Below, piece after piece: positions 33,441 to 34,966 of a stretch of DNA of 64,000 bases. The translations under genes and the position numbers were made by a program. How positions within the stretch are numbered: the first letter of the stretch is position 1; each line of letters begins with the position of its first letter. The stretch lies in assembly GCF_036453445.1 (NCBI RefSeq), contig NZ_JAZHUX010000001.1. One strand, given 5' to 3'. This DNA comes from Lactimicrobium sp. (GTDB lineage Bacteria; Bacillota_I; Bacilli_A; Erysipelotrichales; Erysipelotrichaceae). The notes under the pieces were generated by a model. That model saw nothing but the letters and a program-made list of their open reading frames with translations. It was not told the origin of the DNA and did not search any database.

Positions 33441-34966
33441 AGAAAGGAGGTGATCCATCCCCACGTTCTCGTAGGGATACCTTGTTACGACTTGACCCCA
33501 ATCACCAGTCCTGCCTTCGACGGCTCCTTCCTTGCGGTTAGGCCACCGGCTTCGGGCATTACCGGCTCTCATGGTATGACGGGCGGTGTGTACAAGGCCC
33601 GAGAACGTATTCACCGCGGCATGCTGATCCGCGATTACTAGCGATTCCAGCTTCATGAAGTCGGGTTGCAGACTTCAATCCGAACTGAGACTGTCTTTCA
33701 GTGTTCCGCTTCACTTCGCAGTGTTGCTTCACGTTGTAACAGCCATTGTAGTACGTGTGTAGCCCAGGCCATAAGGGGCATGATGATTTGACGTCATCCC
33801 CACCTTCCTCCGGTTTATCACCGGCAGTCTCTCCAGAGTCCCTAACTTGATATTGGTAACTGAAGACAAGGGTTGCGCTCGTTGCGGGACTTAACCCAAC
33901 ATCTCACGACACGAGCTGACGACAACCATGCACCACCTGTCACCTTGATAACCTCTCCTGTATCTCTACAGCTTCGCAAGGGATGTCAAGGCCTGGTAAG
34001 GTTCTTCGCGTTGCGTCGAATTAAACCACATACTCCACCGCTTGTGCGGGCCCCCGTCAATTCCTTTATGTTTCACACTTGCGTGCATACTCCACAGGCG
34101 GAATGCTTAGCGCGTTAGTTTCGGCACCGGGTTGCCCCGATACCAAGCATTCATCGTTTACGGCGTGGACTACTAGGGTATCTAATCCTATTTGCTCCCC
34201 ACGCTTTCGTGCCTCAGCGTCAGTCTCTGTCCAGGCAGCCGCCTTCGCCACCGGTGTTCCTCCATATATCTACGCATTTTACCGCTACACATGGAATTCC
34301 ACTGCCCTCTCCAGTACTCTAGCTGACCAGTATCCGTGGCTTTATGGGGTTGAGCCCCACGCTTTAACCACGAACTTAATCAGCCGCCTACGCACCCTTT
34401 ACGCCCAATAATTCCGGATAACGCTCGCCACCTACGTATTACCGCGGCTGCTGGCACGTAGTTAGCCGTGGCTTTCTGGTAAGGTACCGTCACTCAAGCA
34501 TCCTCTGCCTGACGTTCTTCCCTTACAACAGAGCTTTACAATCCGAAGACCTTCTTCACTCACGCGGCGTTGCTCGGTCAGGGTTCCCCCCATTGCCGAA
34601 AATTCCCTACTGCTGCCTCCCGTAGGAGTCTGGGCCGTGTCTCAGTCCCAATGTGGCCGTTCACCCTCTCAGGCCGGCTACGCATCATCGTCTTGGTGGG
34701 CCGTTACCTCACCAACTAACTAATGCGCCATAAGCCCATCCACCAGTGTCTCTCACCTTTAACAATAAAGAGATGCCTCTCTATTGCCTATCCGGTTTTA
34801 GTCCCCGTTTCCAGAGATTATCCCGGTCTCCGTGGGCAGGTTGCTTATGTATTACTCACCCGTTCGCCACTCGGTCAACCCAGCAAGCTGGATCTTCCTC
34901 GTTCGACTTGCATGTATTAGGCACGCCGCCAGCGTTTATCCTGAGCCAGGATCAAACTCTTCATTT
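33441..34966 (-). rRNA. rrs: 16S rRNA, Erysipelotrichaceae-like
   Basis: AGAGTTTGATCCTGGCTCAG, GTGCCAGCAGCCGCGGTAA, anti-SD GATCACCTCCTTTCT; GAGTATGCACGCAAGTGTG resembles Erysipelotrichaceae. Ends are approximate. Confidence 0.98.

Follow-up and report, generated by a model that had tools for sequence, protein, structure and literature searches.

Does the decoding site of Lactimicrobium sp. oppose two pyrimidines at positions 1409 and 1491 of the 16S rRNA (E. coli numbering) and, if so, how did this state arise and what would it mean for the drugs that bind there? The question was raised by a prediction made from a 64,000-nucleotide (64-kb) stretch of DNA of this organism, here called the window. 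It holds one rrn operon, which lies on the minus strand of contig C1 and has the following features.

33443..34967, minus strand: 16S rRNA gene, the sole copy in the assembly (RF00177, model positions 1-1533; one 100% match in the organism's own genome)
33481..33586, minus strand: helix 44 (h44, E. coli 1399-1504) including the decoding A site, placed by E. coli numbering and covariance-model alignment
33577..33577, minus strand: A1408, the canonical bacterial state, from sequence reading
33576..33576, minus strand: U1409 (A on the plus strand), from sequence reading and covariance-model alignment; the same base in all 25 distinct clade variants of h44
33494..33494, minus strand: C1491 (G on the plus strand), from sequence reading and covariance-model alignment; likewise the same base in all 25 distinct clade variants of h44
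33492..33493, minus strand: A1492 and A1493, the canonical decoding adenines, from sequence reading
30291..33191, minus strand: 23S rRNA gene of the same operon (RF02541, 2754.7 bits)
31266..31285, minus strand: helix 69 of the 23S rRNA (E. coli region 1906-1925), which has the canonical sequence GGCCGUAACUAUAACGGUCC unaltered, with an exact match at 23S position 1907
30097..30203, minus strand: 5S rRNA gene (RF00001, 77.3 bits)

The 16S rRNA gene scored 1538.4 bits against Rfam model RF00177 (gathering score 50) and is a full-length bacterial small-subunit (SSU) rRNA. On the minus strand, CCGCCCGTCATACCATG places G1405 at 33580, U1406 at 33579, C1407 at 33578, A1408 at 33577 and U1409 at 33576, and GGGGTCAAGTCGTAACAAGG places U1490 at 33495, C1491 at 33494, A1492 at 33493 and A1493 at 33492. 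Reading of the sense strand set U1409 at 33576 (CCGCCCGUCAUACCAUG) and C1491 at 33494 (GGGGUCAAGUCGUAACAAGG), confirming the two bases of the original prediction as well as both of their coordinates. In the Infernal alignment to RF00177, the marks for a non-standard pair fell exactly on U1409 (consensus c) and C1491 (consensus g). These two bases stand at the first h44 pair below the A-site loop, where nearly every bacterium is base-paired, and the pair beside them, A1410-U1490, is canonical. The 1409-1491 position of the drug-binding pocket is thus altered to a non-Watson-Crick U1409·C1491, as in the class of rRNA target-site aminoglycoside insensitivity that involves 1408, 1409 and 1491. Helix 69 of the 23S rRNA, to which h44 is partnered both in bridge B2a and at the capreomycin pocket, is unchanged, and the 23S 2058 region is canonical as well. 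The 16S-23S spacer (33192-33442, 251 nt) was found to be without a tRNA gene; the three tRNA genes of the window stand elsewhere, at 15751-15823, 18603-18676 and 18688-18760.

The organism's own genome is a draft of 100 contigs with 90% completeness, and its single 16S copy possibly represents a collapsed operon. In addition, mis-binning is common among 16S contigs from this clade, one of which is a chimera. These facts leave some room for an artefact, which could be an error of assembly or consensus, mis-binning of the contig, or an operon copy that is a pseudogene or in the minority, but we regard such an origin as highly improbable, since independent isolate genomes and metagenome-assembled genomes (MAGs) of the genus have the identical two bases, as does every copy in multi-copy genomes, and the two recur in at least 70 of the metagenome matches listed below, mostly of Bulleidia type. 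The operon itself also lies within the 64-kb window on contig C1, and its 16S rRNA gene is full-length and high-scoring. All 16S rRNA genes of the same-genus genomes G002, G006, G008 (two copies) and G015 carried U·C, and among multi-copy relatives the state was present in 3/3 assembled copies of G374, 2/2 of G154 and 2/2 of G008. A consensus error or a change confined to one copy, either of which would have undone the original prediction, is contradicted by the conservation across the clade and by the complete agreement among the copies of multi-copy relatives. Copy-number heterogeneity in the window's own strain would be excluded only through these copies of its relatives. The artefact reading is therefore largely refuted already.

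To place the change within the family, 401 genomes from 83 genera were drawn, 104 of which had a readable h44. U·C was confined to the window's genus (seven genomes including the window's own; none in the 82 other genera), whereas A1409-U1491 was the state of each of the 22 loci read outside this genus within the family, as the original prediction had stated for other Erysipelotrichia. No canonical C-G pair was found in the window's genus among its 35 other genomes in the draw, and seven genomes of a neighbouring family (26 loci read) all had C-G. The mismatch is not a broken C-G pair; it derives from the A-U pair of the family instead, and the U·C state appears, from these sequences, to have been reached by two substitutions. 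C-G matches inside the family (4/400) were rejected as a family state, as one is E. coli-like and the rest look foreign or sit on long branches. The E. coli-like 16S 3' end (CACACCATGGGAGTGGGTTGCAAAAGAAGTAGGTAGCTTAACC; locus L063 on G139:C70) is probably a contamination of that family genome.

A scan with one genome per species, covering 185,579 species, found 18 carriers of U·C. Isolates among the carriers are Bulleidia extructa W1219, Lactimicrobium massiliense Marseille-P4301, Stecheria intestinalis, and the Erysipelotrichaceae strains NK3D112 and 7770_A6; the 16S rRNA gene of L. massiliense Marseille-P4301 is 99.7% identical to that of the window over the 301 nt present on that contig. The clade corresponds to one GTDB genus, for which the NCBI names include Bulleidia, Solobacterium, Lactimicrobium and Stecheria. 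In a maximum-likelihood 16S tree, 14 distinct U·C sequences formed a single clade (SH-aLRT 100), with a genus carrying A-U as its sister (support 93). Pairwise 16S identity within the U·C clade had a median of 92.5% and fell to a minimum of 89.4%, indicating that the state is old. U1409·C1491 is accordingly an old, fixed and inherited trait of the whole Bulleidia/Solobacterium/Lactimicrobium group.

Several apparent carriers outside the group were rejected as independent origins. MAGs labelled Mogibacterium, Collinsella, Clostridia and Saccharibacteria (loci L033, L034, L040 and L048) contain 16S fragments of Bulleidia type with 93-97.5% identity to the window, probably through mis-binning of their rRNA contigs. 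A further candidate lineage, a ‘Clostridiales bacterium’ MAG (L032, CAVEVP010000014.1), was discarded because its 16S rRNA gene is chimeric: over the final ~200 aligned columns it shares 97.9% identity with the 16S of the window, against ~79% elsewhere.

Outside the main clade, U·C has arisen on at least two further, independent occasions. A second origin is represented by L043 and L049, which share ~84% identity with the window, lie closer to the C-G family in the tree, and recur in metagenomes as L163 and L207. The third is represented by L042, labelled Calditrichota and 77% identical to the window, which recurs as L131. A metagenome scan for pyrimidine-pyrimidine oppositions at 1409·1491 returned at least 120 loci, with at least 122 matches listed. 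Among the matches listed, at least 70 were U·C (mostly Bulleidia-type), at least 39 were C·U in many unrelated h44 sequences, at least nine were C·C and at least four were U·U. Loci sampled from this set proved to be full-length bacterial 16S rRNA genes (1400-1520 bits), apart from an archaeal SSU and a eukaryotic one. As these are genuine full-length SSU genes, loss of the 1409-1491 pair is rare but recurrent in nature, and pyrimidine-pyrimidine oppositions at this position are not unique to the window's clade.

Two side observations were made in the metagenome data. C1409·U1491 occurs in many unrelated uncultured lineages (L201, L160, L105, L122, L141, L154 and the archaeal L114); it is the same opposition as that created by the M. 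tuberculosis resistance mutation G1484T. The SSU sequences L149 and L195 read CCGCCCGTCATTTCTACCGATTGG, with A at 1408 together with U1409 and C1491. Classification placed L149 with eukaryotic 18S (1389 bits), and L195 is similar in sequence. Most eukaryotes have G at 1408.

How the missing pair is accommodated was analyzed by comparing h44 within the U·C clade (25 distinct variants, 30 predicted pairs). Compensatory double changes were observed in 8 of the 30 pairs, for example CG in 15 and UA in 10 variants at one pair, and CG in 13, UA in 11 and AU in one at another, while columns 1409 and 1491 were invariant and unpaired in all 25 variants. The compensatory changes indicate functional rRNAs under normal pairing selection, in which one specific pair is missing. 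In the nearest-neighbour model, the A-site loop is 2x3 with U·C instead of 1x2, which costs +1.2 kcal/mol compared with A-U and +2.9 kcal/mol compared with C-G. As the only kind of rRNA in these cells carries it, the U·C ribosome is functional.

Effects of the 1409-1491 pair on drug sensitivity are known from M. smegmatis with a single rrn operon, with C·C, C·U, C·A, U·G and G·G as the full set of variants measured (PMC2916820). The wild type, with C-G, had MICs (μg/mL) of 1 for paromomycin, 0.5 for neomycin, 1 for gentamicin, 1 for tobramycin and 0.5-1 for kanamycin (PMC2916820). In the same order, the MICs were 512, 16, 16-32, 16 and 16-32 with C·C; 512-1024, 8-16, 32-64, 64 and 64-128 with C·U; and 4-8, 0.5-1, 8, 8-16 and 8-16 with U·G (PMC2916820). 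The engineered C·C and C·U oppositions thus raised MICs 16- to 1000-fold, and U·G by only 4-16-fold; the authors attributed the large effects to the opposition of two pyrimidines, which hinders positioning of ring I (PMC2916820). Position 1491 is also the main determinant of mitoribosome selectivity, and G1491C increased the paromomycin IC50 from 0.03 to 19.2 μM (PMC3942853). In human mitochondria, the A site carries C1491 (PMC2377432). For capreomycin, the equivalent of C1409U in M. smegmatis lowered sensitivity 8-16-fold (PMC12235517). M. tuberculosis positions 1402 and 1484 had been equated with 1409 and 1491 in E. coli, in agreement with Table 1 of the same study (PMC12235517). Literature searches on the U1409/C1491 combination, and on helix 44 and aminoglycosides in Erysipelotrichaceae, yielded no paper.

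By analogy with these systems, U·C probably weakens the binding of aminoglycosides. Position 1491 would normally provide a paired purine on which ring I of the 2-deoxystreptamine aminoglycosides stacks, with 1409 holding 1491 in place; with C1491 opposite U1409, this stacking platform would be lost or narrowed. Aminoglycosides with a 6'-OH (paromomycin type) are predicted to be bound far less well and those with a 6'-NH3+ moderately less well, with the engineered C·C and C·U ribosomes of M. smegmatis and the natural C·C human mitoribosome as models. Sensitivity to the tuberactinomycins capreomycin and viomycin is predicted to be lower too. From engineered C·C and C·U ribosomes and C·C mitoribosomes we thus infer a lower affinity for aminoglycosides and capreomycin. 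An orthologue of TlyA (TIGR00478), which 2'-O-methylates C1409 and C1920, was not found in the 90%-complete genome; the best matches scored 26.5 and 25.3 bits, compared to a cut-off of 185.8 bits, and covered model positions 1-52 and 1-64 only. A TlyA-dependent, capreomycin-sensitive ribosome is accordingly not indicated, position 1409 itself also being U instead of C.

In whole cells the effect is expected to be masked, as these bacteria are strict anaerobes without aminoglycoside uptake. Anaerobes are described as intrinsically resistant to aminoglycosides, respiration-dependent uptake being absent from them (PMC5745468). L. massiliense is a strict anaerobe (PMC6462784), and so is Solobacterium moorei. 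The obligately anaerobic B. extructa PP_925 showed gentamicin and amikacin resistance by disc diffusion, and its authors credited the aminoglycoside resistance to an AAC(3) gene with a homologue kept across the lineage (PMC12786226). The genome of the window contains a gene of this family, located outside the window.

G000:C20:20776-21462 (L086 1399-2217), plus strand: AAC(3)-family (Antibiotic_NAT, PF02522) gene, an intact 272-aa ORF

Its product scored 216 bits against PF02522 and 141.5 bits against NCBIfam NF033082, below the cut-off of 270 bits, and is a putative aminoglycoside acetyltransferase only. With the lack of uptake and the AAC(3)-like gene as confounders, the resistance of B. extructa is not assignable to the rRNA, and the rRNA variant adds no more than a redundant layer to the resistance of these cells. 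It was correctly anticipated that gene-based screens miss an rRNA change of this kind, as RGI and AMRFinderPlus were silent on it for B. extructa PP_925 (PMC12786226). The original prediction of intrinsic, rRNA-encoded resistance stands as far as the mismatch itself is concerned, but its relevance for antimicrobial resistance was overstated: strict anaerobes are resistant through the lack of uptake, and the trait is ancient, chromosomal and non-transferable. U·C is, given the lack of aminoglycoside uptake, a redundant and non-transferable property of the drug target and not an acquired resistance. By analogy with the measured variants, the predicted loss of drug binding seems reasonable, if unproven for U·C, and its significance for antimicrobial resistance appears low.

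Taken together, it is likely that U1409·C1491 is a natural, clade-fixed opposition, derived from A-U, which lowers the affinity for aminoglycosides and tuberactinomycins, is masked at the whole-cell level, and was not selected by drugs. It most likely arose as a tolerated structural variant. A milder version of this history, which we consider rather unlikely, is that the change is near-neutral also for drug binding and decoding. U·C can make a hydrogen-bonded, water-bridged pair in RNA helices, and its distortion and drug effect could thus be smaller than those of C·C or C·U. Such a pair would keep h44 near-helical, with only a slight change in drug binding and decoding as for U·G, and could have been reached by drift from a weak A-U pair. 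The three or more independent origins (the main clade; L043/L049/L163/L207; L042/L131) suggest a well-tolerated alternative, the model puts the cost over A-U at only 1.2 kcal/mol, the MICs changed only 4-16-fold with U·G (PMC2916820), and there is no aminoglycoside pressure on these organisms. However, the measured C·C and C·U variants had the largest effects of all 1409-1491 variants, for which the authors held pyrimidine-pyrimidine geometry as such responsible (PMC2916820), and the stacking purine at 1491 is gone whatever the hydrogen bonding.

That selection keeps U·C in place seems less probable still. It could act via the A1492/A1493 switch, on accuracy or speed, as has been proposed for the ‘hard’ mitochondrial switch, or through protection from natural A-site-binding compounds in oral, gut or rumen communities. 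U·C was invariant in 25/25 h44 variants of the clade over up to ~10% 16S divergence, while neighbouring pairs vary with compensation; it is convergent in unrelated lineages; and an AAC(3)-family gene is kept in the window's genome and, as PMC12786226 states, throughout the lineage. Every one-step reversion to a pair would need a transversion, though, and the invariance is therefore weak evidence of selection; moreover, the AAC(3)-like protein reaches 141 bits against a curated cut-off of 270 bits. It is accordingly doubtful that U1409·C1491 is a selected, convergent decoding-site architecture, present in at least three lineages and invariant in one of them over ~10% 16S divergence. If it were, the Bulleidia group would offer, among bacteria, a natural model of an A site that is mitochondria-like and insensitive to aminoglycosides.

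On the likely reading of a tolerated variant with lowered drug affinity, the clade offers a natural bacterial ribosome with C1491 opposite a pyrimidine in the cultivable S. moorei, B. extructa and L. massiliense. It could serve as a natural comparator for bacterial versus mitochondrial aminoglycoside selectivity, and could show how decoding tolerates a missing 1409-1491 pair. As a caution, a distant AAC(3)-like gene alone should not be taken to explain aminoglycoside resistance in these anaerobes. No clinical change follows, because strict anaerobes are not treated with aminoglycosides and the trait, which is chromosomal and multi-copy, does not move between genomes.

U1409·C1491 adds a natural member to the known class of A-site polymorphisms. 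The engineered G1491C (C·C) and G1491U (C·U) strains of M. smegmatis resemble the window in having a pyrimidine-pyrimidine opposition at 1409·1491 with A1408 kept, and in having a ribosome that functions as the only rRNA of the cell. The window differs from them in having U instead of C at 1409, and its state is natural and clade-wide, with A-U and not C-G as the ancestor; the drug data belong to C·C and C·U. The human mitochondrial 12S A site (C1409·C1491; PMC2377432, PMC3942853) shares with the window a natural C1491 opposite a pyrimidine, but adds C1410·A1490, whereas the window keeps A1410-U1490 and has U1409 in a bacterial ribosome; of the features that define a mitochondrial-type A site, C at 1491 is present in the window, and C1409 and C1410·A1490 are absent.

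The M. tuberculosis rrs mutations C1402T and G1484T affect the same two positions, and C1402T likewise gives U at 1409. These mutations are recent, single and therapy-selected and lead to U·G or C·U, whereas the window differs at both positions (U·C), and its state is ancient and found in an anaerobe without exposure-driven selection. Closest in descent is A1409-U1491 of other Erysipelotrichaceae, which is also known from Bacteroidota and others: the same pair departs from C-G there, and it represents the immediate ancestor state of the window. Those Erysipelotrichaceae keep Watson-Crick pairing at this position, whereas the clade of the window has lost the pairing altogether.
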